From Candidatus Collierbacteria bacterium UBA2277 (lineage in GTDB: Bacteria > Patescibacteriota > Microgenomatia > UBA1400 > MFAQ01), in contig DDWV01000001.1 of NCBI GenBank assembly GCA_002347045.1, forward strand, positions 223,381-287,380: DNA of 64,000 bases. Reading direction: 5' to 3'. The notes beneath the pieces are model-generated. The model did not search any database and was not told where the DNA came from. It saw nothing but the letters and a program-made list of their open reading frames with translations. The number at the start of each line of letters is the position of its first letter. Within the stretch, counting starts at the first letter, position 1. Below are positions 4,549 to 21,459 of the stretch, in pieces. The translations under genes were made by a program, and so were the position numbers.

Positions 4549-4565
4549 CTTGTATTATAGAGTCA

Positions 4566-5447
4566 ATGAGAGATTTTCGAATACAGACTTTACTTAATTG
4601 CTGGAAAATAGTCAAGAAAAAAGAAATGCCGATTGGGAATTTGTTGGCTTATTCATGGCTTTGGATTAAACCTGCAAAGAGAAAAAAAATAAAGGCCAAT
4701 AAGATGTTTGACCTTAATGACTTCCCCATTCTGAAATATAAATCGTACGAGCTAGCAAAGTTTGATCCATTGTGGTTCCCTAGACTTTTTGAGCCAACCA
4801 CTTTAGGAATACGAACTTGGGAGTATGGTTTGCTACTGGAAAGTACCGGGTTTAGAAAAAAAACTGTTTTGGATGCCGGGTGTGGAAACAGCAGGCTTCC
4901 TCTTTTTTTAGCCAAGAAAGGCGCCAAGGTGACTCTTCTTGACATGAATGACCCCCTAGAAAAAACTGTGGTCAAAAGACATAAAAACCTGAGGTTTGTC
5001 CTTGGTGATATGACCAGGCTAAAGTTCTCAGACAATCACTTTGATAGAGTAATTTGTATCTCTGCAATTGAACACGTGGATATGAAATCTGGTGGAGATT
5101 TTTTTTCAGAAAAAGAATATATTTCTCGTGCTCTTAAAACTATCAAAGAACTAGCTAGAGTTACAAAAGCTAAAGGCGTATTTTATCTAACAACTGACTT
5201 TTATTTACCAAGGCAAGACACGGATAAATGGCCTGGTTCAAAAGACATAATTAGAGGAGCTTTTCCGTGGAAATGTTTGCCTCTTTTTGTGAAGGAAATG
5301 AAAATGAATGGTATCAATTTGGACAGAGAGCCAGAGATAGATGAGGGAATTTTAGTTAGATCAAAGAGTAGAGCAAATTACCGTGGTAGATATTTTACGA
5401 CAGTTTCTTTTAGGGGAGTAAAGTCTTTGCTCGCAAGTAAAGATTGA
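4566..5447 (+). CDS. Class I SAM-dependent methyltransferase (start codon uncertain, may be internal)
   Basis: Motif I 'VLDAGCGNSRL' and acidic 'LLDMND'. Confidence 0.55.
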   Translation: MRDFRIQTLLNCWKIVKKKEMPIGNLLAYSWLWIKPAKRKKIKANKMFDLNDFPILKYKSYELAKFDPLWFPRLFEPTTLGIRTWEYGLLLESTGFRKKTVLDAGCGNSRLPLFLAKKGAKVTLLDMNDPLEKTVVKRHKNLRFVLGDMTRLKFSDNHFDRVICISAIEHVDMKSGGDFFSEKEYISRALKTIKELARVTKAKGVFYLTTDFYLPRQDTDKWPGSKDIIRGAFPWKCLPLFVKEMKMNGINLDREPEIDEGILVRSKSRANYRGRYFTTVSFRGVKSLLASKD

Positions 5448-6213
5448 ATAACAAATAGAATGGCAAACTTGTGACAGGAAGGTGTCTGCGACAAAATCTA
5501 AGATGACTATTGGCTAGAATAATCAATTTTTTCTTACCTAGTTTGTTTGTACTCATAGAAAGATGGTGGAATATCTTTACCGATGGACAAAATCCTAAAC
5601 AAAATCCTTTTTCGACAGCCCTTAGGCAATAGTCTGCATCCTCGTAGTAGAGAAAAAAACCATCATCCAACTTTCCTGCCACATCTAGAACTACCGAAGG
5701 AATCAAAAGACAAACGCCAGAAAAATAATCTGGTCTAATATTTGTGTTTTTACTTAGGTGATAGTTTCTTCCAAAAAACATGTCTACTTTGCCACCATAG
5801 TCATAAACAGCTTTTCCTTTGTCTTTGTACTCTACTTTTGGTGAGATAATGTCCCCTTTAGTTTTCAAAAGCTTTTGGAGAAAGTCTTTACTTTCTACGG
5901 TTGCGTCGTTGTTTATTAGCAAGACGAAGTCTGCCTTCATTTTCTTGGCGTAATCTAGACCTAGATTATTCCCCCCAGCAAAACCTAGATTTTTCTTTGA
6001 AAATATAAATTTTACCTTTGGAAATTTCTTATTTAGATTTCGTGACTCTTCTTCTACGGATCCGCAGTCGACAACTAGTAAGGTTAAGTCTATGCCGTCT
6101 TTGTTTATACCCTTAAACGACTTAAGACAGTCTTCTGTAAGGGCTGCGTTGTTGTAATTTACTGTAATTACTATAATTTTTTTATTTCTTTGTTTCATAA
6201 AATATTTTTTCAA
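5410..6213 (-). CDS. Family 2 glycosyltransferase
   Basis: 'IIVITVNYNN...LLVVDCGS...LINNDATV' GT2 signature. Confidence 0.7.
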   Translation of the reverse strand: MKKYFMKQRNKKIIVITVNYNNAALTEDCLKSFKGINKDGIDLTLLVVDCGSVEEESRNLNKKFPKVKFIFSKKNLGFAGGNNLGLDYAKKMKADFVLLINNDATVESKDFLQKLLKTKGDIISPKVEYKDKGKAVYDYGGKVDMFFGRNYHLSKNTNIRPDYFSGVCLLIPSVVLDVAGKLDDGFFLYYEDADYCLRAVEKGFCLGFCPSVKIFHHLSMSTNKLGKKKLIILANSHLRFCRRHLPVTSLPFYLLFNLYLRAKTLLP

Positions 6214-7276
6214 GTTTCGAGACTGTCTTTTCCCAAGTAAAGAATTTTTTTACTGCCTCTACCCCATTTTTCCCCATCTCTGACTGAAGTTCGCTGTTTG
6301 ACAATAGCATAGATATTGAGTCGGCAATTTTTTGGGGGTTTCTTTCTGTAAGCAGGCCTGTCTTTTTGTGAGTGACTGTTTCCCTAAAGCCTCCCTCACA
6401 AACAGCAATCACAGGTGTTCCGCAAGCCATAGACTCAACTACTGACAGGCCAAAAGGCTCTAAATGCGCTAAAGCTAGAGTGACTCTTGATTGATTGTAA
6501 ACTGTACATAGATCTTTTTGGCTCAGACTAAGAAGTAGTTTGATATCAACCCCTTTCTTTTTGGCAAAATTGACAATTGGCTTCATACTATTCTTTCTGG
6601 GTGAGGCGATAACTAATACTGGTCTAATTTTCTTATCCACCAAAGAGACTGCTTCTATAGAAAGCTTTAGATCTTTTTGCGGTTCATTGTTTCCAATGAC
6701 TAGAAGTTGATTTTTCTTGGCTATTTTTTTAGGGAAGTATTCTTTGGGGTCAACTCCTAAGTGAACTGGAATTGCATTTACTCCATAACTTCTAAATATG
6801 GACTCTACTGAGAAATAAGAGTTTGCTACTGTAACAGTGGCTTTTTTGGCACTAACTATTTCGATGTTTTTTCTGACTTGACGATTAATTTTCTCGTATA
6901 TTCTGTTTGGCAACGGAAGACTCGGGTCTATTTTTAAAAATTCTTCAAAGAGTGCTCGAGTTGGCTCCTGACAAAGAAAAACTGTAGGAGTTTTTAGGAA
7001 CCTTAGGATCCAGGGGGCCTGTGAATGTCTGTCGTGAGATACAAAACAAAGGTCAAAGTTTTTCGAGTCGATGTGTTTGGCAAGTTTGCGTTGCTTTATT
7101 CTTTGCAAAATAATAGATTCAAGATCAATAAACAGTCTATTCCGACTGGTCCACTTGGAGTTTTTTGGATCAGAAAAGAGTGTTATTTTATGTTTCTTGT
7201 TCAAAAGTTTCTGAACTTCTTCCATAGTTCGCGACGCTCCTCCTGAAGGAAGGTCTGAAAAGAAAGCGATCTTCAT
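6182..7276 (-). CDS. Family 4 (GT1-fold) glycosyltransferase
   Basis: C-terminal 'EPFGLSVVESMACGTPVIA' motif. Confidence 0.7.
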   Translation of the reverse strand: MKIAFFSDLPSGGASRTMEEVQKLLNKKHKITLFSDPKNSKWTSRNRLFIDLESIILQRIKQRKLAKHIDSKNFDLCFVSHDRHSQAPWILRFLKTPTVFLCQEPTRALFEEFLKIDPSLPLPNRIYEKINRQVRKNIEIVSAKKATVTVANSYFSVESIFRSYGVNAIPVHLGVDPKEYFPKKIAKKNQLLVIGNNEPQKDLKLSIEAVSLVDKKIRPVLVIASPRKNSMKPIVNFAKKKGVDIKLLLSLSQKDLCTVYNQSRVTLALAHLEPFGLSVVESMACGTPVIAVCEGGFRETVTHKKTGLLTERNPQKIADSISMLLSNSELQSEMGKNGVEAVKKFFTWEKTVSKLEKIFYETKK

Positions 7277-8577
7277 TCTCTTTCAATTGCCATCATCTCC
7301 TTTGTAAAAATTCGCCAAGTTACAAACAAAAAAGGTGGCACGGTAATAACTGAAGCCAAGAGGACACCGTATGCGACACCAACCACTTGATATTTTGGAG
7401 TTAGTATTAGGATTAAAATTATTTCTGTGACAACGGTAAAGACAGCAAAAAATGACGGAATTTGAGGTTTGTTCAAACTTTGTAAAAGGACTGAAGGAAT
7501 GGGTGTGAGAGCTGTGAGAACAAAATATATACTTAGGATTTTTAAGACGGGATATGCCGCCTCAACCACGACGGCGTCTTTAAGCCACCACATGAGGAAT
7601 TCTTTTCCAACTGAGAAGGACAGAAAAATGGCCAAGATGCCACCGATAAAGGTAAGTAACTGAATAGCAATTACTGAAGCCCTGAGCTTTCTAACCCTTT
7701 GCTTTTCCAGCAGTGATGTACCAAGTGGAAAAAAAGCTTGAGCAACTTGTGAGACTACTCCAGCCCCTTTGGCGACAATACTCTGGGGGATACTAAATGC
7801 AGTAATTGCCTGAGCTGAAACCATTACCCCTAAAGCATACTTGGAAAACTGGGCTTCGATTTGACTTGCAAGAGTTCCAACAAAGTTTTTGAGACCAAAA
7901 CCAACCAAAATTTTGCCTTCATTTTTGTAAAATTTTGGCAAGAAGTTCTTACCAGAAAATATTCTAGAAGAATAACGAGCCATAAAGATAAGTGTAAGTA
8001 TATGGAAAACTAACTGAAGAAGGAAAATGAGTGAGATATCAGGATAGTAGCCAGAAAATATTGCCGAGAGAATTGTGTTGGCAGACCCTACGAGAAGAGT
8101 TTTTGAGTTGAACACATCAAACCTTTGTTCTGCTTGAGGAAGACTTAGTAAGTGTGAGTTGATGTGGTTTATGAAAACGGTAATTGTCAGTATTAGAATT
8201 GTAAGGTTTAGCGTTAGTGGGTTCACGTTTTCAAGCAGTGGCAGTGAGTTGCTAAGGTATATTAAGATTGCAGAGATAAGCAAGGAAAGAACTATGCCGA
8301 TTATTAAGAAAAGACTAAAAGATGTTTTCCATGTCTGTATCCTTTCGCTGTCTTTTAAATTTGGAAGTGAAAGGCGGCGAACAACAGCGTTTGATATACC
8401 AAAATCAAATACGGAAGCAAGTGGAACTATAGAGCCTAAAAATAGATACACTCCAAACATATCGCTGCCAAGATTTCTAAGTAGTATGGAGATAGAAAAA
8501 AAACTAGCTAGTAATAGATAGACATAGCTTGCTAGATTAAATCCTGTGTTTTTAATTAAGCTTTTTTTTAGTGACAT
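7273..8577 (-). CDS. Wzx-like oligosaccharide flippase / polysaccharide biosynthesis protein (MOP superfamily)
   Basis: 434 aa with about 12 TM helices and a Wzx-like N-terminus. It is embedded among glycosyltransferase genes. Confidence 0.6.
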   Translation of the reverse strand: MSLKKSLIKNTGFNLASYVYLLLASFFSISILLRNLGSDMFGVYLFLGSIVPLASVFDFGISNAVVRRLSLPNLKDSERIQTWKTSFSLFLIIGIVLSLLISAILIYLSNSLPLLENVNPLTLNLTILILTITVFINHINSHLLSLPQAEQRFDVFNSKTLLVGSANTILSAIFSGYYPDISLIFLLQLVFHILTLIFMARYSSRIFSGKNFLPKFYKNEGKILVGFGLKNFVGTLASQIEAQFSKYALGVMVSAQAITAFSIPQSIVAKGAGVVSQVAQAFFPLGTSLLEKQRVRKLRASVIAIQLLTFIGGILAIFLSFSVGKEFLMWWLKDAVVVEAAYPVLKILSIYFVLTALTPIPSVLLQSLNKPQIPSFFAVFTVVTEIILILILTPKYQVVGVAYGVLLASVITVPPFLFVTWRIFTKEMMAIERE

Positions 8578-9659
8578 GAAATTTCTTCGTAGATTTTTTT
8601 TATTTTTTTGGCAGTTTTTTGACAGTTAAATCTTTCCTCAGCCCTTTGACGGGAGGCGATTGAAAGGGATTGCCTTAGATTTACATTATAAATGAGTTTC
8701 TCTAGGTTTGTTTTGAGTTCGTTGATATCTGAATGTCGAGATATGAGAGCAACATCTCCGCATACTTCAGGAATTGCGCCGCTATTTGTAGTAACTATAG
8801 GAAGTCCGCAGGCCATTGCCTCTAGAAGGCACATGCCATACTGCTCCTTCCATGTTTTTGTTTCCCTGCTTGGTAAGCAGAAAATGTCTGCTTTTTGGTA
8901 CTCTTTTTGAATTTGATGGTAGGGGATTGATTTTACAAATACGTTTTTGAACCCTACTAATTCTGATTTTAGCGGTCCGGAGCCAACGAAAGTAAGATTA
9001 ATTTTTTGATTATTTTCTTTGAGTGACAGGAATGCCTTTAAAAGATCCCCTACACCTTTTTCCGGAACGAGTCTGGCCACACATAAAATATTTACTTTTT
9101 TAGTTTTCTTTGCCGATAGATTTGGTTTGAATTTTTTGAGATCAATACCCATGTTCACTACGGATATTTTTGCTGGCGATACCCCCTCTTTGATTAGAGC
9201 TTGCTTGGCTTTTTCGGTGACGGCAATGAAATGATCGATGTTTTCGTATGCCATTCTTTTATACTGTTTTCTTCCTTTTATACTTTCATTACTAAAGGGT
9301 ATTATTTCCCAAACAGTGCTAACGACCCTCCTTACCATTCCCCTTCTCTTGGCCACAACAGCTTGATATGTATATCCATAATATGTTTCTGCTACGTGGA
9401 CAATATCCGATCCTTTTATCATTTTTTCAAGTCCAAATAGCCTATGGGCGTCTACAAATATTCTGTTGAGCACTGGATACTTGTATGGAAAATTTGGTAG
9501 ATCTGTAGGTGACCATAATTTTTCCAATGGCAAATCGATATTGCTTGATATGGGATGTTTTGAGGAATACACTGAGATTTCGAATGATCTTCTTAGACTG
9601 CTGTAGTTTTGAAGCTCAAAAGGGTTTAAAAAGGCTCCTCTAACGATTGATATTTTCAT
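8568..9659 (-). CDS. Family 4 glycosyltransferase
   Basis: 'EQYGMCLLEAMACGLPIVTT' motif. Confidence 0.7.
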   Translation of the reverse strand: MKISIVRGAFLNPFELQNYSSLRRSFEISVYSSKHPISSNIDLPLEKLWSPTDLPNFPYKYPVLNRIFVDAHRLFGLEKMIKGSDIVHVAETYYGYTYQAVVAKRRGMVRRVVSTVWEIIPFSNESIKGRKQYKRMAYENIDHFIAVTEKAKQALIKEGVSPAKISVVNMGIDLKKFKPNLSAKKTKKVNILCVARLVPEKGVGDLLKAFLSLKENNQKINLTFVGSGPLKSELVGFKNVFVKSIPYHQIQKEYQKADIFCLPSRETKTWKEQYGMCLLEAMACGLPIVTTNSGAIPEVCGDVALISRHSDINELKTNLEKLIYNVNLRQSLSIASRQRAEERFNCQKTAKKIKKIYEEISCH

Positions 9660-10522
9660 GTCCCAATTGACTTCTTCGTAATAATAATTAAATCATCAAT
9701 AAGGAATATCGTTTGTATCAATATATTTTTTACTACTCCAAAATGCTTTAAAAAATATTTTTTTCTTGACCACAACCACGAAGAATGCCTTATCCTATCC
9801 TTATTCTTACTGCTTGCCCCTCCGACATGAAGTATCTCTGATTTACTTGAATAGTAAATTTTATATCCAGCATTTTTTGCTCTCAGACAAAAATCAACAT
9901 CTTCTAAATACATAAAAAATGATTCATCAAACAATCCAACTTTGTTAAACAATGATCGCTTAACTAGCATATAGCCTCCTGTTATAACATCTACTGTAAA
10001 TGAGCTGTTTTGTTTTCTGTCTTGATAGTAGAAATATTTGTGCCATTTGTCATCACGGCGAAGTTTTCTAAAATTTGTAAAGTCGAAAATTCCAACCATC
10101 AAATTTGGAAATCTGAAATGAGAACCGCTTACCCTTCCCTCGTTGTCAATGGTGGCTCCCCCACATATTCCGGCATTATTTTTTTTAGCGCTATCAACCA
10201 AATGAAATAGTGAATTTCTCCTTAATATGGTGTCTGGATTCAATAACAGAACGTATTCACCATTGCTCTCTTTTATTCCCTGATTAACAGCGCAAGCAAA
10301 TCCAGCATTAACTTTATTTTTTAACAGTGATATGATTTTAAATCTTTTTTGTAACTTTAAGATTTTGATTACTGTGAGATCTGATGAGCAATTATCAATG
10401 ACAATTATCTTAGAGATTTCAAAATTTTTATTGTCGCTGTTTACAACAGATTCTATGCATTTATTTATATATCTTTCTGAATTAAATGTTACAATGATGA
10501 TTGTAAGGTTTGATTTTTGCAC
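9656..10522 (-). CDS. Family 2 glycosyltransferase
   Basis: 'LTIIIVTFNSERYI...IIVIDNCSSD...LLLNPDT' GT2 signature. Confidence 0.7.
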   Translation of the reverse strand: MQKSNLTIIIVTFNSERYINKCIESVVNSDNKNFEISKIIVIDNCSSDLTVIKILKLQKRFKIISLLKNKVNAGFACAVNQGIKESNGEYVLLLNPDTILRRNSLFHLVDSAKKNNAGICGGATIDNEGRVSGSHFRFPNLMVGIFDFTNFRKLRRDDKWHKYFYYQDRKQNSSFTVDVITGGYMLVKRSLFNKVGLFDESFFMYLEDVDFCLRAKNAGYKIYYSSKSEILHVGGASSKNKDRIRHSSWLWSRKKYFLKHFGVVKNILIQTIFLIDDLIIITKKSIGT

Positions 10523-10551
10523 TTTAGCTAATTAAAAATTAATTCTACACA

Positions 10552-13209
10552 ATGAAGTCCTGCATTTTGCTTCTTGTTGGGGTGATTATTGGAATCATAA
10601 CACTTTTTGGAATTCCAAAAACAGTTTTTGCTAATTATGATCTTAATGATAATTTTTCGTTTCTAAATAATTCAGTTTGGAATTTTATAAATAACAACGA
10701 AAATATTGAGATTGTCGACGACAATTTACGTTTAAGCGCTGCTAGTGGTTATAAATTCCCTTTTGTTACCCTTAAAAATAAATTGGATCTTGGAGACAAA
10801 TATATTATTGATTTAAGGTTTAAGTTTTCTGGTAATCTTTCGTATGGTAATGGAATTGTTTTTTCGCACATCACTCCATCGAATAACTCTTCAAAAGAAC
10901 TAGATTCAACTAACGTGATATTTCAAATATGGCCAAAAACTAGTGCCATCTGGGGTATTTGGTCACCCTTATGCGACTCAAGAGTGTCATTTTGTGTTGA
11001 TAATAAAAAATTTGAAGTACCGCTCTCCTCAACCCAGGCTACTTCAAACGAATGGCACGAAGTTAAGATAATTTACGAAAATAATACCTACAAAGTTAAT
11101 GTAGATAACACGTTGGTATTCAGCTCACTTAATACAGATTTGGGAATTACTGATATTTGGTTTGGAAACTATGAAAAATTGTTAACAGTTAATTCTTGGC
11201 CTAACTTATACATTGATTACTTATATGTTTATGATGATGTTGCAGAAAATGAACCTACGATAATTATTCCTGGGTTGGGAGCTAGTTGGGACTTGGGCGC
11301 TATGCTTACAGGTACGGATGGTAATAATTGGAATATTCCAAGTTTTATAAATGAATATGATGGACTAAAAAACTCTTTTATAAAAGCAGGCTACTCTGAA
11401 ACTGATGACCAGAATCTCTTTACATTTTCATATGACTGGAGAAAACCGTTGTCTGTTTTAGCCGAACGTTTAAATTCATTTATTGAAGACAGGGTTCCAA
11501 GTGGAAAAATTAATATTGTTGGACATAGCATGGGAGGACTAGTTGCCAGGGCGTATGTGGATTCTTACGGAGATACTAGAATCAATAAAATTGTTGCGGT
11601 TGGATCTCCAAACATGGGGTCAGTAAAGGCTTATGGTCCGTGGGAGGGAGCCACTGTTTGGGATGGTGCATGGTGGACGAAAGTTGCTCTAGATATTACT
11701 ACTCATTTTGGCGTTTTACCTGGAGAGCTGCCTGTTGATACTGTTCAGAGAAAGGTGCCTTCTTTAAAGGATCTTCTCCCAACTTACGATTTTTTAGTTG
11801 ACTCAACTAACTCAACTATTTCTTCATCTTCACTTATCCACAAGAATGATTATTTAAATTCACTTAATCAAAGTTCTGCTCTCAAAGGAGGAAAACTTAC
11901 GACGATTACCAGTCAGGACATACAAACTGAAAAACTTTTGAGGGTCGTTGCCCCTTCTAGTGAAGATGTATTAAATAATTTATGGACGGATGGAAAACCT
12001 TCAGAAACTGATCCATTTGTTTTTGTTGCGGGAGATGGTGTAGTAGTAAATGATAGTGCAAGAGGATTGTTTGATAATAACGTATTTGGAAATGGATGGC
12101 ATGGAGAACTTATTTCTCAAAAAAGAAATATTGAGAAAATATTTAATGTCCTTGGTTTGGATCCAAAGTTTGCTGTTGATGGAACAAGCGACAATAGACC
12201 TAATGTGTTTGTTGCGGCACTAAAATCTCCTGGGGAATTAGTAGTATGCGATTCAGATGATAATAAATGTGGTGATGATCTCGGTTTGTATTTTGATGAG
12301 GAAAAGCTATTTTTGTTGCCTGACTATAATAATCAGAGTTTAAAAATTCGCATTAAAGAAAAGGGCACCGGTTCTTACAGCCTCCACTTGGGAAATATTA
12401 ATGATGAATCAAATTGGATAGTAGCAGGTGGAAGACTGGATAGAGTTGGAGAGGTAGATTTTTTTGATATCTACAGTGATGGACACAGCTTGACAGCAAT
12501 CCAAGACACAACACCACCGAGCACCCCCCAAATATCTGGCTTTATCAATCCGACACTGGGATGTGGTGCAAGTACTCAGCTGCACACCATAACTGTAGAC
12601 TGGACAGATTCATGGGACAAAAATGGAGTACCCGGCTATGAATACAACGTAAACTATCCCATTGGGAATTTGAGGAAGGATTGGAGCACATTTTTTACTA
12701 CTTCTCAGTACAAAGGATCACTAAATGAAGGCGTTCACTATATAAAGGTTAGAACCAGAGATCTCGCTGGAAATGTGTCTGAGTGGTCGAATACATGTAG
12801 TATCACAGCTGACTGGACACCACCTAGCGTGACGATTGAGTCACCGAGTGAAGGAGTATACCAGTCGAAGTCTTTACCAGGCTTAAAATACACCGTAATT
12901 GACAATCTTGATGAGTCTCCTGTTGTAACTGTGACTGGATGGTCAAAGGAAAATGGCGAGCACACAGTAACAGTGACGGCAACAGATAAGGCAGAAAACT
13001 TCAACTCCGCATCAATTACCTATACTATTCAAAATCAAAAGCCAAAACCAGATTCAGATATGTGCAAAAAGAATGGCTGGAGAACGTTTGGACTATTTAG
13101 AGTCTTTCGTTTTAGAAATCAGGGAGAGTGTGTGAGTTATTTCAACAGAATGGAGCGTTTGAGAATAGTTACATTGAATAACTTGAAACGTTTGGGGTGG
13201 AGGAAATGA
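10552..13209 (+). CDS. Secreted multidomain protein: signal peptide, LamG/ConA-like lectin domain, alpha/beta-hydrolase lipase domain (PGAP1/LCAT-like, GHSMGG nucleophile elbow), C-terminal Ig-like repeats
   Basis: Signal peptide 'MKSCILLLVGVIIGIITLFGIPKTVFA'. Lipase motifs 'IIIPGLGASWD' and 'IVGHSMGGLVARAYV'. Ig-like domains 'TTPPSTPQISG' and 'DWTPPSVTIESPSEG...VTATDKAENF'. Cys-containing C-terminal tail. Confidence 0.6.
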   Translation: MKSCILLLVGVIIGIITLFGIPKTVFANYDLNDNFSFLNNSVWNFINNNENIEIVDDNLRLSAASGYKFPFVTLKNKLDLGDKYIIDLRFKFSGNLSYGNGIVFSHITPSNNSSKELDSTNVIFQIWPKTSAIWGIWSPLCDSRVSFCVDNKKFEVPLSSTQATSNEWHEVKIIYENNTYKVNVDNTLVFSSLNTDLGITDIWFGNYEKLLTVNSWPNLYIDYLYVYDDVAENEPTIIIPGLGASWDLGAMLTGTDGNNWNIPSFINEYDGLKNSFIKAGYSETDDQNLFTFSYDWRKPLSVLAERLNSFIEDRVPSGKINIVGHSMGGLVARAYVDSYGDTRINKIVAVGSPNMGSVKAYGPWEGATVWDGAWWTKVALDITTHFGVLPGELPVDTVQRKVPSLKDLLPTYDFLVDSTNSTISSSSLIHKNDYLNSLNQSSALKGGKLTTITSQDIQTEKLLRVVAPSSEDVLNNLWTDGKPSETDPFVFVAGDGVVVNDSARGLFDNNVFGNGWHGELISQKRNIEKIFNVLGLDPKFAVDGTSDNRPNVFVAALKSPGELVVCDSDDNKCGDDLGLYFDEEKLFLLPDYNNQSLKIRIKEKGTGSYSLHLGNINDESNWIVAGGRLDRVGEVDFFDIYSDGHSLTAIQDTTPPSTPQISGFINPTLGCGASTQLHTITVDWTDSWDKNGVPGYEYNVNYPIGNLRKDWSTFFTTSQYKGSLNEGVHYIKVRTRDLAGNVSEWSNTCSITADWTPPSVTIESPSEGVYQSKSLPGLKYTVIDNLDESPVVTVTGWSKENGEHTVTVTATDKAENFNSASITYTIQNQKPKPDSDMCKKNGWRTFGLFRVFRFRNQGECVSYFNRMERLRIVTLNNLKRLGWRK

Positions 13210-13212
13210 TAA

Positions 13213-13243
13213 AAAAACCCACCTAAATAGGTGGGTTTACTTT
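13213..13243. terminator. Bidirectional intrinsic terminator
   Basis: AAAAAAA-CCCACC-TAAATA-GGTGGG-TTT: a 6-bp GC-rich stem flanked by an A-run on one side and a T-run on the other. It lies between convergent genes. Confidence 0.6.
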
Positions 13244-13247
13244 CAAT

Positions 13248-13871
13248 TTATTTGATGGTAATCAACGCAGGGTTTACAACCCCGGAGTCACTATTGACTC
13301 CATACAGATCGTTGTGCCATTGTCGGAGCTGTTCTCCGTAAATCCAAACTTCGCAAAGAAATGCTACAACAATCCCATACATATAACCAGAGAGACCCTG
13401 GTCGTCTGCGATATCCATAGACTTATCAGCGCATTCTTCGAGAGTTTCCCCCAAAGAAATGCGATATTCCATGATTCGAGCCCATTGATCGGCGACTTGG
13501 ATAACTGCTTTGGAGTATGGAGAAGTCTGAACACGAAGAATATCTTCGTACGCTTCCTGATCCTTCACTGACATTTCAAATGGCGCGATTTGAAGCACCT
13601 CTTCCAAATCGGCCTTTCTAAGCGCTTCTATTTTTCTGTACTCTTCCTGGCGAATTGCGTACTGGGGAGATGCCAGATAACGCTTCTCTTTTTCAGCTCT
13701 CCTTTTGTAGAAGTTGCTGATAATTTCCTCGTGCGTCATTCCAGGAGCTGCTTTTACTGTAATTCCGTTGAACTTACACTTGATGACCTGGTGAGTCATT
13801 TTCTGCAAAACAATCATCTTTAAAACTACTACTTCAAGATGATCACCACCCCTTTCTTCCAAAATTATCAT
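13248..13871 (-). CDS. Hypothetical protein (207 aa), compositionally atypical (about 46% GC)
   Basis: Long ORF with a strong upstream SD (AAGGAGGAAG) and a near-consensus promoter. No family recognised. Confidence 0.5.
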   Translation of the reverse strand: MIILEERGGDHLEVVVLKMIVLQKMTHQVIKCKFNGITVKAAPGMTHEEIISNFYKRRAEKEKRYLASPQYAIRQEEYRKIEALRKADLEEVLQIAPFEMSVKDQEAYEDILRVQTSPYSKAVIQVADQWARIMEYRISLGETLEECADKSMDIADDQGLSGYMYGIVVAFLCEVWIYGEQLRQWHNDLYGVNSDSGVVNPALITIK

Positions 13872-13909
13872 TTCTTCCTCCTTGATCTATATTTGAATGT
13901 TCAGTCGGT

Positions 13910-13940
13910 AGATTTTATAACATTATGGGGTAAATGTCAA
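13910..13940 (-). promoter_or_regulatory. Sigma70-like promoter for the 13248-13871 gene: TTGACA-N17-TAAAAT
   Basis: Minus-strand read TTGACATTTACCCCATAATGTTATAAAAT, followed by AAGGAGGAAG and ATG. Confidence 0.4.
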
Positions 13941-14010
13941 TGTGGCTGAGTTTTTCTTTAGGCCTGCCTCGGTGTCGCCACACCTCCGGCTTTCGATTCC
14001 TATAATTATT

Positions 14011-14043
14011 TCTCATAAAAATAAAACTTCCTCGAGGGAAGTT
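14011..14043 (-). terminator. Intrinsic terminator downstream of tRNA-Val
   Basis: Minus-strand hairpin AACTTCCC-TCGA-GGAAGTT followed by TTTATTTTTAT. Confidence 0.4.
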
Positions 14044-14054
14044 CTATTTTTCTG

Positions 14055-14128
14055 TGGTCGCGACAGGAATCGAACCTGTGACCTCTGCAATGTGAATGCA
14101 GCGCTCTAACCAACTGAGCTACGCGACC
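14055..14128 (-). tRNA. tRNA-Val (anticodon CAC)
   Basis: Reverse complement reads GGTCGCGTAGCTCAGTTGGTTAGAGCGCTGCATTCACATTGCAGAGGTCACAGGTTCGATTCCTGTCGCGACCA. It folds into a canonical cloverleaf with anticodon loop TTCACAT. CCA is not encoded. Confidence 0.85.
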
Positions 14129-14171
14129 AAATGATTAACTTGATATATTATACCAATCAGAATAAACTTAA

Positions 14172-14744
14172 TTGATGTCTTTTTTCAGAAAATTTATAAA
14201 GGTTGTATATGAGTTTGTGGAAGCGTTTGTGATATCGGCCTCTGTTTTTGTAGTTGTCTATTTGTTCCTTATGCAACCACATCAAGTGAAGGGAAGTTCC
14301 ATGTACCCTACATTTAGAGACAAGGAGTATTTACTTACAGACAAAGTTACTTATAAAAGAATCGAGCCAAATTTTGGAGATGTAATTGTTTTCAAAGCGC
14401 CAGTCAATGAGAATTTTGACTTTATAAAGAGAGTAATTGCCGTCCCAGGACAAACGGTAATGATAAAAAATGAGCATGTATATATAGATGGAGAACTGCT
14501 TGATGAGTACTATATTTCAGATGATGTAATCACCAATACCGGACAGTTTCTCCAAGAAGGTCGATCTTACACTGTTCAACCTGGGGAGGTAATGGCTTTT
14601 GGTGACAACCGCGAACACTCGTCCGACAGTCGCGATTGGGGTCCTGTACCGGATGACAATATTGTGGGTAGAGTATTTTTCCGATACTGGCCAACGAATG
14701 TTGTAGGAGTTATTTCGAACTCAAAAAAATCCTTTACTAATTAG
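14172..14744 (+). CDS. lepB: Signal peptidase I (S26 family)
   Basis: N-terminal TM helix, catalytic 'GSSMYPTF' Ser box, 'IKRVIAVPGQTV' Lys box and 'GDNREHSSDSRDWG' box. Confidence 0.85.
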   Translation: MMSFFRKFIKVVYEFVEAFVISASVFVVVYLFLMQPHQVKGSSMYPTFRDKEYLLTDKVTYKRIEPNFGDVIVFKAPVNENFDFIKRVIAVPGQTVMIKNEHVYIDGELLDEYYISDDVITNTGQFLQEGRSYTVQPGEVMAFGDNREHSSDSRDWGPVPDDNIVGRVFFRYWPTNVVGVISNSKKSFTN

Positions 14745-14759
14745 AAAGAAAAGGATTGT

Positions 14760-15788
14760 TTAGTAATCAGAAAAATTTTCGGTGTCGTGAGGGATTACGG
14801 TTTCAAGATTTGAGTCGATGCTGTTGTCTACGAATGGCTCAAAAGGATTTGAATATGAAGATGATACTTCTTCGTTTGAGTTTGAGGTTGCGAGCTCTTG
14901 TGTTGGCTCATTTTTTTCTTCGGAGTCTTCCTCTGGTTTAGTTTCTGGCTGTGTTTCCAGTTTTGTGGATGAAGAAACTAAAAGATCGTGAATTTTTTGA
15001 ATCTGTGTTTCTGTTTCTTCAGGATTCCCTTTTAGAACAATATGAATAGCTGTTTCAACTCGAGAGCGACGCATTTTTACATGAACATTCTCCCCTATTG
15101 ATTTTCCAATTGCTGAGGCCATGTTGTCTATAGATTCATTGACTGTTCTTGTGTTGAAGCCATCAGAGGGTTTTGACTTGTGCATGGACTTTTTGAATCT
15201 ACGTGAGAGCTCCTCGGCTCGTCTTACAGACCCACCTTCACGGAGAATCATCTTGTATGCCTCAATCATAGACTGAGTGTCAGGAATAGCTGCTAGAGCT
15301 CTTGCATGACCTTCTGAAATTACGCCTGAGATCAAGCCGTCTTTAAGTGCATCAGGTAACTCGAGAAGACGAAGAGTATTGCTAACAAAGGCGGGGCTTT
15401 TCCCAATACGGGTACAGATATCGGAGTTTGTGAGAGTAAATTCCTTGATTAGTCTTTCAAAAGAGTTGGCTCTATCGATGGGGTTAAGATCTGTTCTCTG
15501 GACATTTTCCACAATAGCCATTTCTAGCATTCCTTGAGGCGATGTTTCTATGATTCGTACAGGAACTTCTTTGAGTCCAGCTAAACGACTGGCTCTCCAT
15601 CTACGCTCCCCAGCAATAATTTGGTAGCCTGCAGGAGTATGTGCCACAACGAGAGGCTGAATGACACCGTGTGTTTTTATCGAGTCTACGAGTTCTGAGA
15701 GAGATTCGGGGGTAATTACACCTCTTGGCTGAAGAGGATTTGGTTGAAGATAGTCGAGAGATAATCTTGCAACGGGTTGGTCGTCCAT
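14760..15788 (-). CDS. parB: ParB/Spo0J family partition protein with acidic/Ser-rich C-terminal tail
   Basis: 'IQPLVV' and 'IIAGERRWRASRLAGLKEVPV' ParB-box motifs plus an HTH region. Confidence 0.8.
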   Translation of the reverse strand: MDDQPVARLSLDYLQPNPLQPRGVITPESLSELVDSIKTHGVIQPLVVAHTPAGYQIIAGERRWRASRLAGLKEVPVRIIETSPQGMLEMAIVENVQRTDLNPIDRANSFERLIKEFTLTNSDICTRIGKSPAFVSNTLRLLELPDALKDGLISGVISEGHARALAAIPDTQSMIEAYKMILREGGSVRRAEELSRRFKKSMHKSKPSDGFNTRTVNESIDNMASAIGKSIGENVHVKMRRSRVETAIHIVLKGNPEETETQIQKIHDLLVSSSTKLETQPETKPEEDSEEKNEPTQELATSNSNEEVSSSYSNPFEPFVDNSIDSNLETVIPHDTENFSDY

Positions 15789-16040
15789 TTATTTTGTGAC
15801 TACGTCTACGTATTTAACACCGTTAAGTTTACGATATTTTACGTTTCCTGAGGCAGTTGCGTAAACAGTAAAATCTCGACCTTTGTCTGTGTTAACACCC
15901 GGATGGAAACCTGCTCCGCGTTGTCTGACGATTATCTGACCTGTTTTAATTGATTCGCCTCCGAATATTTTAACTCCGAGTCTTTTTCCTGCCCTCTGAG
16001 CGTGTTGTCTGGTCGCTCCACCAGATTTGACATGTGCCAT
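15789..16040 (-). CDS. rpmA: 50S ribosomal protein L27
   Basis: 'MAHVKSGGATRQHAQRAGKRLGVKIFGGESI...IIVRQRG' with no N-terminal propeptide. Confidence 0.9.
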   Translation of the reverse strand: MAHVKSGGATRQHAQRAGKRLGVKIFGGESIKTGQIIVRQRGAGFHPGVNTDKGRDFTVYATASGNVKYRKLNGVKYVDVVTK

Positions 16041-16046
16041 ATATGT

Positions 16047-17099
16047 TTATTTTTTTTGTAAGATAACTATTTCACGCTTAACATCCGCGTCGGGACGTGA
16101 ATAAAATATTCCGCGTTTCAATGGATTGTAACTTAGTTTCAGCTTCCCGTCAATAATTTCGCTTGTCTTATATACTTTCTTGCCGTCAGAAAACCAAGGG
16201 AATACCATTACAACGAAACCGCCAGGTTTTAATACCTTTAGCCAGTCTTTTAGGCAACCAAGATATAACTTTCCCAAACCGGGAACCATATAGCGAACCT
16301 CATCGGGTCTGAATTTTGATTTTCCTAAAAATGGCTCGGTGACAATAGCGTCGATATTTGAAAATTTTGTAGACAAATGAGTCGCATCGAGTACTTCAAG
16401 TAGTCCAGAAAAATTCATGGAACGAAGATTTTCTTCGGTGTCACTCACCTGCTTTGAGATAATGTCAGCACCGGCGATGGTGTACCCAAGTTCGGCTGCC
16501 TCAACCAATACGCGACCAGAACCACAAAAGGGGTCTAGAAGTGTCTTTCCCTCACCTGAAAAGGGTACAAGATTTACCATACTTCTGGCAATTTTAGGTG
16601 GAAGCATTCCTGCCCTTGGGTCAATGCGGGGCATATGTCTATCTTTTTTTATCCAGTGAGCAAAATTATGAACCCAGATAGTAGTCCATACTTGTAACTT
16701 TTCTATATTAATGAAAAATTCGTCTACTTTGTGCTTTTTGTTTATTATTGGAGATAAGCCAAAGGAATCTTTGGGAAGGATAAACCGCCCTTTTCCTTTT
16801 AGATCTTTGATTTCTTGATGGAATTTTCCCATTGGGCCTGTTTTTCCCAGTAAAGAAACCGAAAAAGTCTTTTCTTTTATTGCCGAAGCTATTGATTTTT
16901 CATCTGGTGAGACTTTTTCCATCAAAACTGCAAGTTTTATACTTGATCCTAGTCTTCTAGCTAGAGATTTTGCTTCGTCAATTGTGCCTGCAGAAAACAG
17001 ATATACATTGGGGTACTCTTGGGTCGCCTCCTTTATTTGAACGGCTACTTCTTCTGCCGCCAAAGTGTTGTTGGCTCCGACGAACAATAAAAACTGCAT
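16047..17099 (-). CDS. THUMP-domain class I SAM methyltransferase (putative RNA m2G/N6A-type methylase, UPF0020-like)
   Basis: 'LLDPFCGSGRVLVEAAELG' motif I and 'VTEPFLG' motif IV-like. It lies between rplU and rpmA. Confidence 0.55.
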   Translation of the reverse strand: MQFLLFVGANNTLAAEEVAVQIKEATQEYPNVYLFSAGTIDEAKSLARRLGSSIKLAVLMEKVSPDEKSIASAIKEKTFSVSLLGKTGPMGKFHQEIKDLKGKGRFILPKDSFGLSPIINKKHKVDEFFINIEKLQVWTTIWVHNFAHWIKKDRHMPRIDPRAGMLPPKIARSMVNLVPFSGEGKTLLDPFCGSGRVLVEAAELGYTIAGADIISKQVSDTEENLRSMNFSGLLEVLDATHLSTKFSNIDAIVTEPFLGKSKFRPDEVRYMVPGLGKLYLGCLKDWLKVLKPGGFVVMVFPWFSDGKKVYKTSEIIDGKLKLSYNPLKRGIFYSRPDADVKREIVILQKK

Positions 17100-17103
17100 T
17101 TAT

Positions 17104-17430
17104 TTATAGGTTTATAGCCTTGACAGTGAGATAATTCTCAGATTGTCTGTGTCCTTGAATTTTTCTATATCTAGACTTGGCTTTAAACTTTGCTACACGA
17201 ATTTTCTCACCTCTTCCAACACTGTCGAGAGTGAGATCTACAGTAACTTTATCTAGATATGGCTGACCAATAAGAGTTTCCTTTCCATCATGAACTAACA
17301 AAACTTCTTTAACCTTAATGGTGTCGCCTGCTTTGGCTTCAAGTTTTTCTGTTGTAATCTTGTCTCCTTGTTTGACGAGGAACTGTTTGCCGCCAACTTC
17401 AATGACAGCGTATATATTTTTGTCTTCCAT
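17104..17430 (-). CDS. rplU: 50S ribosomal protein L21
   Basis: 'YAVIEVGGKQFLVKQGDKI' N-terminus typical of L21. Confidence 0.9.
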   Translation of the reverse strand: MEDKNIYAVIEVGGKQFLVKQGDKITTEKLEAKAGDTIKVKEVLLVHDGKETLIGQPYLDKVTVDLTLDSVGRGEKIRVAKFKAKSRYRKIQGHRQSENYLTVKAINL

Positions 17431-17438
17431 GTGCGAAA

Positions 17439-18494
17439 TTATATCTCAAAGGGGGTGGTTAAATCAAGCTGGCGAAGTTGTAAACCAATAAGAATTGCAA
17501 AACTGAGTAAAGAACTTCCTCCATATGAAAACAATGGCAGTGTAATACCAGTAATTGGCATCACTCCTAGGTTCATTCCGACGTTAACGATAGTTTGGAA
17601 TGCAAAAACAGTTAGGACTGAGATCGACAAAAGGGATGCATTTTTGTCTTTTAGAATTTTGGCTGTCTGAAGACTAATGCTAAAAACAACGTAATATGCA
17701 GTTAGTAAAATCATAGCACCAACAAAACCAAACTCTTCTACGAATGAAGCGAATATAAAGTCGGTGTGCCTTTCTGGAAGGAAGTTTAGATGTGACTGAG
17801 TTCCCAGTTTCACCCCCTTACCAAGCAGTCCACCTGAACCTACAGCTATTGTGGCTTGGATTACGTTGTATCCCGCACCTCTCGGATCTTTGTACGGATT
17901 AATAAAAGTTTCAATACGTTGTCTCTGATATTGTTTGAGCAGTTGAGCCTCAAGGGGAACGACTAAGGCAAGGAAAACAATCCCTAAAATCATAATTTTT
18001 TTGAAACTTCCTGTAAAAATCAACAGTACGAGAGGGAGACACAGTAAAGTTAGTGCAGATCCGAGGTCTGGCTGAATTACGATGAGAGCTGTCGGTATGG
18101 CAGCTAAAAATAGAAACTTAAAAAGATCCATCCATTTTTCTGGCTTAAACTTTGATAGGTATGAGGAGTAGAAAATCGCCAGTAGAGGTTTTACTATCTC
18201 AGAAGTCTGTAGATTAAAAAATCCTAGATTTATCCAGCGAACAGAACCTCGTATGTTACTACCTATCATCATTGTAAGTACCAAGAGAAAAATACTGAGA
18301 ACGTATAAAAATGTAGCAATACTAAACAAATTTCTAGTATCAAAACGTGAGAGAGACAAAACAATAATGACACCAGCAACCACAAAAGCAAGTTGGGAGT
18401 AGAATAATTCCGAAGCGGTACTCCATATTGTGACAAGACTTAGGACTAATATTAAAGTTATTGCCCCGACATAGAGACCCTTGTTGGGACGCAT
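17439..18494 (-). CDS. SEDS family peptidoglycan polymerase (RodA/FtsW-like), second copy outside the dcw cluster
   Basis: 10 TM helices and the 'GSGGLLGKG...PERHTDFIFASFVEEFGFVG' SEDS signature. Confidence 0.8.
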   Translation of the reverse strand: MRPNKGLYVGAITLILVLSLVTIWSTASELFYSQLAFVVAGVIIVLSLSRFDTRNLFSIATFLYVLSIFLLVLTMMIGSNIRGSVRWINLGFFNLQTSEIVKPLLAIFYSSYLSKFKPEKWMDLFKFLFLAAIPTALIVIQPDLGSALTLLCLPLVLLIFTGSFKKIMILGIVFLALVVPLEAQLLKQYQRQRIETFINPYKDPRGAGYNVIQATIAVGSGGLLGKGVKLGTQSHLNFLPERHTDFIFASFVEEFGFVGAMILLTAYYVVFSISLQTAKILKDKNASLLSISVLTVFAFQTIVNVGMNLGVMPITGITLPLFSYGGSSLLSFAILIGLQLRQLDLTTPFEI

Positions 18495-18495
18495 A

Positions 18496-21459
18496 TTAGT
18501 TTGATCTTACAATTTTTAGATCGTCCCCTTTTGTCAGCTTTGACACTAGAGCTTTTCGCTTTATTTCATCTTCAAACTTTTTGGGCCAGTCTGAAAGCAC
18601 GACTTCAACCTTTTCGTCTAATCTACACCCAGCATCTTTTCGGGCACCTTGTATGTTTCTGACTACTTCACGAACCTTTCCTTTTTGGATAAGATCGTCA
18701 GTCAGGTTTGTGTTTAGTTCGATTGCGTACTGTTTTGAGTCTATAAATACGACAGACTCAATATTAAGTTCTTCTTTAATCAATTGAATTAATCCCTGGG
18801 ACTGGAACAAATCTGACTTAGGAGAATTTATCGTAATATCTGACAGAGGTTGTTTAACAGGAATGTTTTGAGTCTTTCTTATAGAGTGACCTGTTTCACA
18901 TATTTTCCTCACTTCTGCCATAAGGCTGATTAATTTCTTATCATCGTCGGTAACTAGATTTACCTCTGGCCAGTCAGCTAGGTTTACCGACTGATTTCCT
19001 GTGATGTTGGTATAGATCATTTCAGACATGTATGGTGTAAACGGCATAAGCACTCGTGAAAGGGTATCCAAGACTTCATAAAAAGTGTTGTTACAGTTTT
19101 CCTTGTCTTCCCCAGTCTCGGCACTTGGACCAACTCTATCTCTGGATCTTCGGATGTACCAAAGTGAAAAATCTTGAACAAAAGACTCAATCGAGTTTGT
19201 CGCTGAAAAAGCATCAAAGACTTCAAGTTTTTTTGTAGTTTCAAGAACAGTTTCTTTGAGTCTGGCTAAAACCCACTTATCCAGCACATTTTCTGACTGC
19301 TTGGGATTGTCTCTTGGTTGCCAGTTTTCCAGAGCAGCAAAGTTTGCAAAGTACCTGTATGAATTCCAGATGATCATATTGAACTGACGCTTAACTTCCC
19401 CAACTGTATTGTATCCAAATAATAAGTTTCTTTCGGGATTATGCCTCAGGAAAGTCCACCTCATAGCATCAACTCCCATCTTGTCTGCACCTTCGTTGAA
19501 CTCGACAGAATTTCCTGTAGATTTGTGCATCGGACGGCCATCTTCTCCAACGACTGTAGCGAATCCAAGAACAGACTTAAATGGGGTTGTGTCTTCGAGA
19601 ACTGTACTCATGGCTATTAGCGCATAGAACCAGTTTTTAAACTGACCAGGGAAAGACTCAGTTATAAAATCAGCCGGAAACCATTCCTTCCAGGATTCTT
19701 TATCACCTGTGTAGCTAACTTTTCCAGTTTTAGGATCCGTGAGTGTTGAAAAGGGAACGATTCCTGCGTCAAGCCAAGGATTGCCTACGTCTGGAATGCG
19801 ATGCATTAGACCTCCACAAGAGCATTTTATGGTTACTTCGTCTATAAAAGGCTTGTGTGGAGTATGGCCTTCAAACTTGTCCCAACCTGAGGAAGCTCTT
19901 TTCTTTAGCTCTTCTTGGCTACCAATTACGTCAAAACTGTCACAGTCTTCACATACCCAGATAGGCAAAGCTAGGCCCCAGTATCTATTTTTCTTACTTA
20001 TTAGCCAATCGTGCATGTTGTTAAGCCAATCAATCTCTCTTTCGAGTCCGAACTCTGGTTTCCAAGTTATTTCTTTGGCTACGTCTATCATCTTCTGACG
20101 AAGAGTTCTGCCCTTTTCATCTTGAGGATCAACTTTGTCCATGGCTATGTACCATTCGTCGGCTACTTTCCAGACAAGTTCTGTCTTGCAACGCCAGCAA
20201 GCAGGGTATCGATGAGTGTAGTTTTCTACTCGAAAAAGCCAGTTTTCGCCCTTGGCTTCTCTCTCGGCAAGGTAATCAAGGATAATCTCAGGATGTTTTT
20301 TTGCGTTTTGACCTGAGAGGAATCCTAAGTTGGGAAGATAATCTGCATTGTCTCCTATGATTGGAATCATAGGAAGTCCAAGTTTTCGTCCAAGCAAAAA
20401 ATCTTCGGTACCGGCACTGGTCGCGGTATGCACCATACCAGTTCCTTCCGTATTGCTTATTGGCAAAATAAAAGTATCGGTAGCTACAACAACGTGGAAT
20501 TTATCTTGATTCAATTTGGCAACCTCAGCCACAGCGGGAAGAGTGTCGAATGGAGTTGTGTAGTGAAGACCAACGATCTCTGAGCCTAGAGACGTCTTAA
20601 CAATTTTTTTGTAACCATCCTTAAAAACAGAGTCTACAAGTGCTTTCAATACCCAAAAACTATCTCCGCTATTACCTTCAACGAGAGCATATTCTTGCGT
20701 GGCATCCACAGATACGGCGATATTGGCAGGAATAGTCCAAGGAGTTGTTGTCCAGATAATTAAATACTCATTATTTTTATCTACAATAGGTAGCGAAAGA
20801 TAAATTGATTTATGAGTAAGCTCTTTATAGTCTTCGGTAAGCATTTCGTGTTGAGATATTGCAGTTTCACAACGAGGACACCATGGAACGGCATCGTGCC
20901 CTTTGTAAATCCAGCCTTTCTGCCAACAAATTTGAAGAAAGTTCCAGATTGAGTAGTTGTTAGTTTCGGACATGGTGAAGTAAGAGTTATCCCAGTCCAT
21001 AAAATAACCAAGTCTTTTGCTTTGATCAGTTTGAATTTTTGAGTACTTAAGAACTCTTTGCTTACAGAGTTCTACGAATTTGTCTACTCCAAAGGATTCA
21101 ATGTCTTTTTTGGTGCGAAAGCCAAGCTCCTTTTCTACTTCTACTTCTACCCACAAACCCTGACAGTCGAAACCATTTTGAAACCTTTGCTTGAATCCAC
21201 GCATATTGTTGAACCTTTGCCAAAGATCTTTATATGTTCTTCCCCAGGCGTGATGAACTCCCATGGGATTATTTGCTGTGATTGGGCCGTCTAGAAAGGA
21301 AAATTTTTTGTCTGAGTCATTATTTTTACTTAGATATTTTTCTAGTGTTCCGTCTGAGTACCACTTTTCTATAAGTTCTTTTTCCATCAAAGAAAAATCT
21401 GGGGATGACTCCACCTCTTTTATCTTATGTGTTTTTGTGTTTTTCATATTATTGTTCAA
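18496..21459 (-). CDS. ileS: Isoleucyl-tRNA synthetase (type 2-like)
   Basis: Class I aaRS 'NGFDCQGLWVEVEVEK', IleRS-specific 'YPACWRCKTELVWK' and a KMSKS-like 'KMHKSTGN'. 987 aa. The ORF begins at TTG, and an in-frame ATG 12 nt downstream is an alternative start. Confidence 0.8.
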   Translation of the reverse strand: MNNNMKNTKTHKIKEVESSPDFSLMEKELIEKWYSDGTLEKYLSKNNDSDKKFSFLDGPITANNPMGVHHAWGRTYKDLWQRFNNMRGFKQRFQNGFDCQGLWVEVEVEKELGFRTKKDIESFGVDKFVELCKQRVLKYSKIQTDQSKRLGYFMDWDNSYFTMSETNNYSIWNFLQICWQKGWIYKGHDAVPWCPRCETAISQHEMLTEDYKELTHKSIYLSLPIVDKNNEYLIIWTTTPWTIPANIAVSVDATQEYALVEGNSGDSFWVLKALVDSVFKDGYKKIVKTSLGSEIVGLHYTTPFDTLPAVAEVAKLNQDKFHVVVATDTFILPISNTEGTGMVHTATSAGTEDFLLGRKLGLPMIPIIGDNADYLPNLGFLSGQNAKKHPEIILDYLAEREAKGENWLFRVENYTHRYPACWRCKTELVWKVADEWYIAMDKVDPQDEKGRTLRQKMIDVAKEITWKPEFGLEREIDWLNNMHDWLISKKNRYWGLALPIWVCEDCDSFDVIGSQEELKKRASSGWDKFEGHTPHKPFIDEVTIKCSCGGLMHRIPDVGNPWLDAGIVPFSTLTDPKTGKVSYTGDKESWKEWFPADFITESFPGQFKNWFYALIAMSTVLEDTTPFKSVLGFATVVGEDGRPMHKSTGNSVEFNEGADKMGVDAMRWTFLRHNPERNLLFGYNTVGEVKRQFNMIIWNSYRYFANFAALENWQPRDNPKQSENVLDKWVLARLKETVLETTKKLEVFDAFSATNSIESFVQDFSLWYIRRSRDRVGPSAETGEDKENCNNTFYEVLDTLSRVLMPFTPYMSEMIYTNITGNQSVNLADWPEVNLVTDDDKKLISLMAEVRKICETGHSIRKTQNIPVKQPLSDITINSPKSDLFQSQGLIQLIKEELNIESVVFIDSKQYAIELNTNLTDDLIQKGKVREVVRNIQGARKDAGCRLDEKVEVVLSDWPKKFEDEIKRKALVSKLTKGDDLKIVRSN

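Follow-up and report, generated by a model that had tools for sequence, protein, structure and literature searches.

Known C-terminal sorting signals are tripartite: a motif is followed by a transmembrane helix and then by a cluster of arginines or other basic residues (10.1101/2023.06.07.544157). On the side of the enzymes, the described serine hydrolases that matter here are LPLA2 and LCAT (PF02450; structures 4x90 and 4xwg), the phospholipase effector Tle4 of the type VI secretion system (T6SS) of Pseudomonas aeruginosa (4r1d), the family I lipases of Burkholderia and Pseudomonas (1ys1, 1ex9), and BlEst2 (6wpx) and the A. fulgidus lipase (2zyr). The protein we compare with them has 885 amino acids and is encoded by an open reading frame (ORF), confirmed with its ATG start, at 10552..13209 (+) of a stretch of 64,000 nucleotides of Candidatus Collierbacteria bacterium UBA2277 (contig DDWV01000001.1 of assembly GCA_002347045.1, positions 223,381-287,380, forward strand). 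We call this whole stretch the window. The protein is a real multidomain serine hydrolase of the LCAT/LPLA2/bacterial-lipase type, from a bacterium of the Microgenomates, a group of the Patescibacteria or candidate phyla radiation (CPR). As an enzyme it is a further member of an already known kind, and its novelty lies in a module of its tail: residues 832-864 belong, as a diverged copy, to a very large and as yet uncurated family of two-cysteine modules of about 35 residues. The end of the protein has two parts.

13045..13143 (+): two-cysteine C-terminal module, residues 832-864, KPDSDMCKKNGWRTFGLFRVFRFRNQGECVSYF, with Cys838 and Cys860
13144..13206 (+): basic C-terminal helix ending in Trp and basic residues, residues 865-885, NRMERLRIVTLNNLKRLGWRK

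The module has the motif C-x4-W...F-[KR]-N-Q-G-x-C-V-S. A search with the whole protein yields 175 homologs, and the family alignment, used both for the AlphaFold2 (AF2) model and for residue conservation, contains 120 homologs. The pattern C-x4-W-x(8-12)-F-[KR]-N-Q-G-x-C is present in 26 of these 120, including short architectures that have no immunoglobulin-like (Ig) domains. A profile of the ortholog tails, searched against 5.8e9 sequences, retrieves more than 120 unrelated short proteins or fragments, with E-values down to 6e-11 and the consensus PTSKDQCKKGGW...FKNQGDCVSFVATGGKNPP. In the reverse direction, a hidden Markov model built without the window protein matches it at 48 bits, and it is on account of this match that residues 832-864 are assigned to the large family. 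The family consensus is PTSKDQCKxGGW-x(3-12)-FKNQGDCVSFVATGGKN, and the window protein agrees with it at both cysteines, at the tryptophan and at F-K/R-N-Q-G.

The extent of the family can be judged from two further searches. HMMER, applied to 1.84e9 representative proteins, finds 7428 clusters at E<=1e-3, of which 3070 remain at E<=1e-10; between the module and the C-terminus of its carrier there are usually 12-18 residues, and sometimes two or three copies stand in tandem. A scan of the GTDB species genomes with a consensus-type alignment gives more than 600 module sites among the matches listed, and the best 78 of these were studied as carrier loci. These 78 loci belong to Thermoleophilia, Acidimicrobiia, other Actinomycetota, Acidobacteriota, Chloroflexia, Saccharimonadia and Daviesbacteria. 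Their carriers have signal peptides, range from about 170 to 980 amino acids, and occur several per genome and in tandem gene arrays. Two such arrays, in metagenome-assembled genomes of Thermoleophilaceae (L006, 765..3126; L009, 71..3814, with five genes in 4 kb), consist of three to five paralogous secreted proteins, most of about 170-320 amino acids, all with the C-terminal module. The passenger domains of the carriers are unrelated extracellular folds: beta-propellers, PKD, He_PIG, Calx-beta and FG-GAP. There is also a stand-alone family of 68-80 amino acids in which a signal peptide and a proline-rich linker are followed by the two-cysteine module and nothing else (P0152, P0157, P0160, P0167, P0168, P0173, P0179, P0183 and others, and loci L002 and L004); one member, P0183, is annotated as coming from a Patescibacteria genome.

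The module is undescribed in the curated libraries (Pfam-A, NCBIfam), in the PDB and in the literature searched. The tail has no match in NCBIfam or Pfam at E<=10; no family of either library spans the module in 147, and then 10, carriers of the general type; the sequence profile of the tail has only chance-level matches in the PDB (E>1); Foldseek, given a model of the isolated tail, returns 0 matches there; and literal motif strings of the module occur in none of the 8 million papers searched. The last 60 residues contain no transmembrane segment: the 19-residue Kyte-Doolittle maximum is 0.09, against 2.8 at the N-terminus, so the tail is not a tripartite signal of the sortase type, be it LPXTG, PEP-CTERM, MYXO-CTERM or another. 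The module resembles the cysteine-containing tripartite signals in being a short C-terminal element with invariant cysteine, carried by many unrelated secreted proteins per genome. However, those signals have one cysteine, a transmembrane helix and an arginine cluster, while the module has two cysteines, is predicted to be helical and soluble, lacks both a transmembrane segment and an NCBIfam match, and exists in tandem and stand-alone copies.

An initial annotation of this DNA, made from the sequence alone, had described the tail as unlike any known sorting signal, which agrees with these searches, and had allowed that it might be unique to this protein, which the 26 homologs contradict. The tail it quoted is present, but lacks the last 14 residues of the protein (...RMERLRIVTLNNLKRLGWRK, ...CKKNGWRTFGLFRVFRFRNQGECVSYFNRMERLRIVTLNNLKRLGWRK), and it noticed neither the cross-phylum family to which the cysteine motif belongs nor the separate Trp-rich terminus.

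When the isolated tail is modelled with AF2 from a 114-sequence alignment, it forms two helices, the first one short, and after a loop a third, long helix, with a mean predicted local distance difference test score (pLDDT) of 76. In this model Cys838 and Cys860 would lie on neighbouring helices, where they could form a disulfide.

The second part of the tail behaves differently from the first. In the Microgenomates proteins the module is followed by [ED]-[RK]-x-E-[RK], and the sequence closes with aromatic residues or Trp together with basic residues: FFWWI, WSWR, WRWIK and FWWK in orthologs, LGWRK in the window protein. Nine homologs that lack the cysteine module have the same kind of ending straight after an Fn3 domain (RRWWKW, HWWVWNR), twenty others end in ...IVWK after a helical domain, and several others have a hydrophobic or transmembrane helix and a basic tail at the C-terminus. 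At least two Trp are found within the last 10 residues in 25/120 homologs. The AF2 helix runs on to about residue 880, and the 27 residues from Glu859 to the C-terminus have a net charge of +5 and a moderate hydrophobic moment of 0.43. No other ORF of the window has a Trp-rich C-terminus, and among 304 ORFs of at least 100 amino acids from CPR loci only the lipase orthologs do. For this reason we treat the Trp-ending terminus as a property of the lipase family, to which residues 865-885 appear to be specific, and reject it as a general signal. As a separate observation, eight homologs (P0027, P0029, P0033-P0035, P0045, P0078, P0091) end in a VLGE[TA]/VLGT motif, single or double, then a hydrophobic helix and finally a basic tail. 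This ending looks like a tripartite anchor or sorting signal of the C-terminus, although its motif is unfamiliar.

We now turn to the protein that carries this tail. Public data contain an identical protein, on the JGI metagenome contig Ga0242423_000004 (3300040971), which is 646,801 bp long. All named homologs but one come from Patescibacteria of the Microgenomates group (Collier-, Woese-, Shapiro- and Beckwithbacteria), the sole other one, P0055, being labelled Spirochaetia. The remaining features are as follows.

10552..10632 (+): N-terminal signal peptide or signal anchor, residues 1-27, MKSCILLLVGVIIGIITLFGIPKTVFA, then NY
10639..11232 (+): beta-sandwich of the ConA-like lectin/glucanase fold, residues 30-227, with one cysteine pair, 141/148
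11257..12171 (+): alpha/beta-hydrolase of the LCAT/LPLA2/lipase type with a helical cap, residues 236-540
11527-11529 (+): Ser326, the nucleophile, in GHSMGG
12034-12036 (+): Asp495, of the catalytic triad
12100-12102 (+): His517, of the catalytic triad
12205..12504 (+): beta-sandwich found family-wide directly C-terminal of the hydrolase, residues 552-651, with cysteine pair 566/573
12532..12810 (+): Ig/Fn3-like domain 1, residues 661-753, with cysteine pair 671/749, from the AF2 model
12826..13029 (+): Ig-like domain 2, of the Big_13 type, residues 759-826, from Pfam and the AF2 model

The AF2 model of the whole protein has a mean pLDDT of 91 and confirms the fold assignments. At the N-terminus, whose hydrophobicity is given above, the model has a helix at residues 3-20 and a low-confidence linker at 22-27. 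The residues VFA before the N at the predicted cleavage site satisfy the -3/-1 rule for signal peptidase I, which would thus be expected to cleave after VFA. Reading the protein as a lipoprotein was rejected, Cys4 being too early for a lipobox. The eight cysteines of the mature protein form four within-domain pairs, 141/148, 566/573, 671/749 and 838/860, a pattern typical of exported proteins. From these sequence features we infer that the protein is exported by the Sec pathway.

The ConA-like domain has the jelly-roll beta-sandwich fold, and its Pfam matches to LamG and 3keto-disac_hyd stay below cut-off (PF02210, 19.2 vs 22.9 bits; PF06439, 19.6 vs 26.8). In the beta-sandwich at 552-651 the strands of the model exceed a pLDDT of 95, and S559, P560, G607, G614 and W622 are almost invariant in the family. 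Ig/Fn3-like domain 1 has a sub-threshold Pfam match to Big_3_3 and a phmmer match to the Fn3 domain of chitinase A1 (1k85, E 0.003). Ig-like domain 2 passes the Big_13 (PF19077) cut-off by a small margin, 28.7 bits against 27, near residue 800, in agreement with the AF2 beta-sandwich at 759-826, and has Foldseek matches to the adhesins SraP and SiiE. Pfam, AF2 and Foldseek together bear out the initial annotation in its signal peptide, its ConA/LamG-like region, its LCAT/PGAP1-like core and its Ig-like domains; its count of two C-terminal Ig-like domains must be corrected, as the model contains three beta-sandwich domains C-terminal of the hydrolase (552-651, 661-753, 759-826).

The enzyme class, LCAT/LPLA2/lipase type, is secure. 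On residues 267-375 LCAT, Abhydrolase_1, Palm_thioest and PGAP1 of Pfam all score over their cut-offs, with LCAT (PF02450) at 39.7 bits against 21 and Abhydrolase_1 (PF00561) at 40.5 against 25.8. The alpha/beta-hydrolase core that had been proposed around GHSMGG is therefore solidly matched, and the triad and the fold, an alpha/beta-hydrolase with a cap as in solved members of the LCAT/lipase type, agree with it. Residues H325, S326, G328, D495 and H517 are invariant in 120/120 homologs; the motifs PGxGxSW, YDWR and GSPxxG are almost invariant, and GHSxGG is invariant or nearly so. The family profile matches the Burkholderia/Pseudomonas family I lipases with E 3e-8, and its alignment to them places GDGxV on NDGxV, which contains the catalytic Asp, and nH on NH, which contains the catalytic His. 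It also matches LPLA2 (E 2e-4), LCAT (E 1e-3), Tle4 and the glycosylphosphatidylinositol (GPI) inositol-deacylase PGAP1. Among solved folds, the phospholipases Tle4 and LPLA2 come nearest. The top Foldseek matches are BlEst2 and the A. fulgidus lipase, with alignments of about 600-650 columns; these are longer than the catalytic domain, which suggests that both may also carry a C-terminal beta domain.

The differences from these known enzymes are nevertheless considerable. Identity to LPLA2/LCAT is only about 17%, and the Pfam match reaches no further than the N-terminal quarter of the LCAT model; compared with these enzymes the protein adds the ConA-like N-terminal domain, three beta-sandwich domains and the cysteine tail, and is bacterial and, as predicted, Sec-exported. 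Unlike the gene of Tle4, the lipase gene has neither T6SS genes nor an adjacent immunity gene at its locus: it lies among glycosyltransferase genes, a Tad4-like gene and lepB, and export would proceed by the N-terminal signal peptide. The family I lipases share the GHSxGG...GSPHxGS motifs and the positions of Asp and His, and BlEst2 and the A. fulgidus lipase align beyond the catalytic domain. However, only some 55 residues around the nucleophile are similar in sequence to the bacterial lipases; a lipase-specific foldase and a type I or II secretion context are missing, and lectin and Ig domains are present in addition. The lipase family is not treated in the literature on secreted proteomes and lipases that was looked at.

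Gene order was compared between the window (298..21459) and five loci (L084-L088) of Woese-, Collier- and Shapirobacteria whose lipase orthologs are 30-48% identical. The order is conserved: a surface-polysaccharide cluster of GT2 and GT4 glycosyltransferases and a Wzx-like flippase (with Wzy and acyltransferase-3 in some form of the cluster), the lipase, a variable slot, lepB, parB, L27, a methyltransferase, L21, ftsW/rodA and ileS. Since orthologs at such identities retain the same order, the lipase gene is a core positional ortholog of the Microgenomates and not a mobile accessory gene. The glycosyltransferase cluster is transcribed divergently from it, and lepB encodes signal peptidase I. 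In the window the two divergent start codons, the GTG of the GT2 gene at 10522 (-) and the ATG of the lipase at 10552 (+), are 29 nucleotides apart; the gap is 25-42 nucleotides in the orthologous loci, too little for two promoters that would overlap neither each other nor coding sequence.

The variable slot between the lipase and lepB is empty or holds other genes in the orthologous loci. In the window a gene at 13248..13871 (-) occupies it and encodes a protein of 207 amino acids. The C-terminal half of this protein matches, at 80 bits (cut-off 25) and E 1.9e-22, PF25186, 'Type I Thoeris inhibitor Tad4', so that a CPR chromosome here carries an anti-defence domain of the phage type.

How, then, would such a protein work? 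We lean, without great assurance, towards a surface-retained phospholipase or acyltransferase, whose two-cysteine module is a non-covalent retention or docking module and whose basic Trp-ending helix is interfacial. The enzyme would be exported via Sec and act outside the cytoplasm on membrane lipids or glycolipids, as a predicted phospholipase A or acyltransferase. A glycan would be the ligand of the ConA-like domain, with the three beta-sandwich domains as a spacer. The module would fold by itself as a small hairpin of helices, held together by a disulfide between Cys838 and Cys860. Through non-covalent contacts, with no sortase-like cutting, it would keep its passenger at the cell surface or dock it there, while the final helix (865-885) would add affinity for the membrane interface or the envelope. 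The main argument for the C-terminus as the determinant of retention is that the C-terminal endings of the family are interchangeable, several of them in confirmed positional orthologs. Given that the nearest folds are the phospholipases Tle4 and LPLA2, action of the putative lipase on host membranes is plausible.

Several observations weigh against this reading. Stand-alone and tandem copies fit a binding domain but do not prove retention at the surface. The enzymatic function, the substrate and the localisation of the family are predictions from sequence. The tail is modelled with low pLDDT, 47-77 for the helical tail (835-885) of the full-length model and 76 in isolation, and the disulfide is conjectural. 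The module of the window is atypical, with NGW in place of GGW and an insertion of three residues, and ends 25 amino acids from the C-terminus, against the usual 12-18, with a helix where other members have ATGGKNPP. As for the suggestion of the initial annotation that the tail motif might recur in the same genome, a six-frame motif scan finds no second copy of the module within the 64-kb window, though other genomes carry several. Finally, the conserved adjacency of glycosyltransferases could mean that the substrate is the cell's own envelope and not a host.

This last point leads to the rival that survives best, one that we regard as a possibility of the second rank: the enzyme would serve the envelope of its own cell. 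As a deacylase or acyltransferase, it would modify a surface glycopolymer, lipid-linked or O-acylated, that is the product of the adjacent glycosyltransferase, Wzx, Wzy and acyltransferase-3 cluster and to which the ConA-like domain would bind. In every ortholog checked, at identities of 30-48%, the lipase gene starts 29-35 nucleotides from the divergent GT2/GT4/flippase cluster; the matches to PGAP1, a GPI deacylase, and to palmitoyl-thioesterases, as well as the presence of a lectin-fold domain, also speak for this view. However, the flank formed by lepB, parB, L27, L21, ftsW and ileS is equally conserved, so the adjacency may be mere collinearity, and the best structural neighbours are membrane phospholipases. 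This view of the enzyme is compatible with the retention view of the tail: the two are not exclusive.

It is improbable, in our opinion, that the module is a true C-terminal sorting signal, recognised and possibly cleaved by an unlinked enzyme or export pathway that would attach its passengers covalently to the envelope. Its position at the very C-terminus, with a constant spacing to the stop codon, its strong conservation across phyla, the many carriers with unrelated passengers in one genome, and a weak choice-of-anchor J match just upstream of the module in one carrier all speak for it. A classical sorting signal is disfavoured because the transmembrane helix and arginine cluster of the published definition (10.1101/2023.06.07.544157) are missing, because tandem copies and stand-alone proteins with no passenger would be odd for a cleaved tag, and because no protease recurs in the neighbourhood. 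On this last point, no conserved protease or sortase neighbour of carriers was seen at the two stand-alone Patescibacteria loci (L002, L004), which have no neighbours in common, or in a clustering of 2,498 ORFs from the 78 carrier loci, where the search for a partner or processing gene gave only antisense artefacts and a lineage-specific SnoaL-like neighbour. SnoaL-like genes recur near module carriers in 14 loci.

We give equally little credit to the idea that the module is a protein-protein docking or oligomerisation element with a dockerin-like role, by which secreted proteins would be joined to a scaffold or to one another: it is indeed short, helical and highly conserved, and tandem and stand-alone copies could be competitors or adaptors, but no cohesin-like partner family is seen beside carriers, and no Pfam family, Dockerin_1 included, matches the tail at E<=10.

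Returning to the surface-retained enzyme, its interest for the biology of these organisms comes from their lipids. CPR bacteria are described as lacking the ability to make membrane lipids and as enriched in lysolipids (PMC7242380); on the strength of that description, a conserved, putative surface phospholipase would be an attractive candidate for lipid scavenging. Tentatively, and with more doubt than confidence, we may go one step further: the module would represent an unrecognised class of surface-retention (or sorting) domain with no transmembrane segment, present in thousands of secreted proteins of Actinomycetota, Acidobacteriota, Chloroflexia and Patescibacteria, and in the Microgenomates it would tether a phospholipase or acyltransferase by which lipid-auxotrophic cells take acyl chains or lysolipids from neighbouring membranes. 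With respect to how CPR/Patescibacteria obtain their lipids, an LPLA2/Tle4-like enzyme that is predicted to be surface-exposed, and is kept at one chromosomal position across the Microgenomates, is a concrete candidate for lipid acquisition or envelope remodelling. Defining the binding partner or recogniser of the module would annotate thousands of hypothetical secreted proteins, and the module could reveal a new route of protein display in bacteria that mostly have a single membrane.

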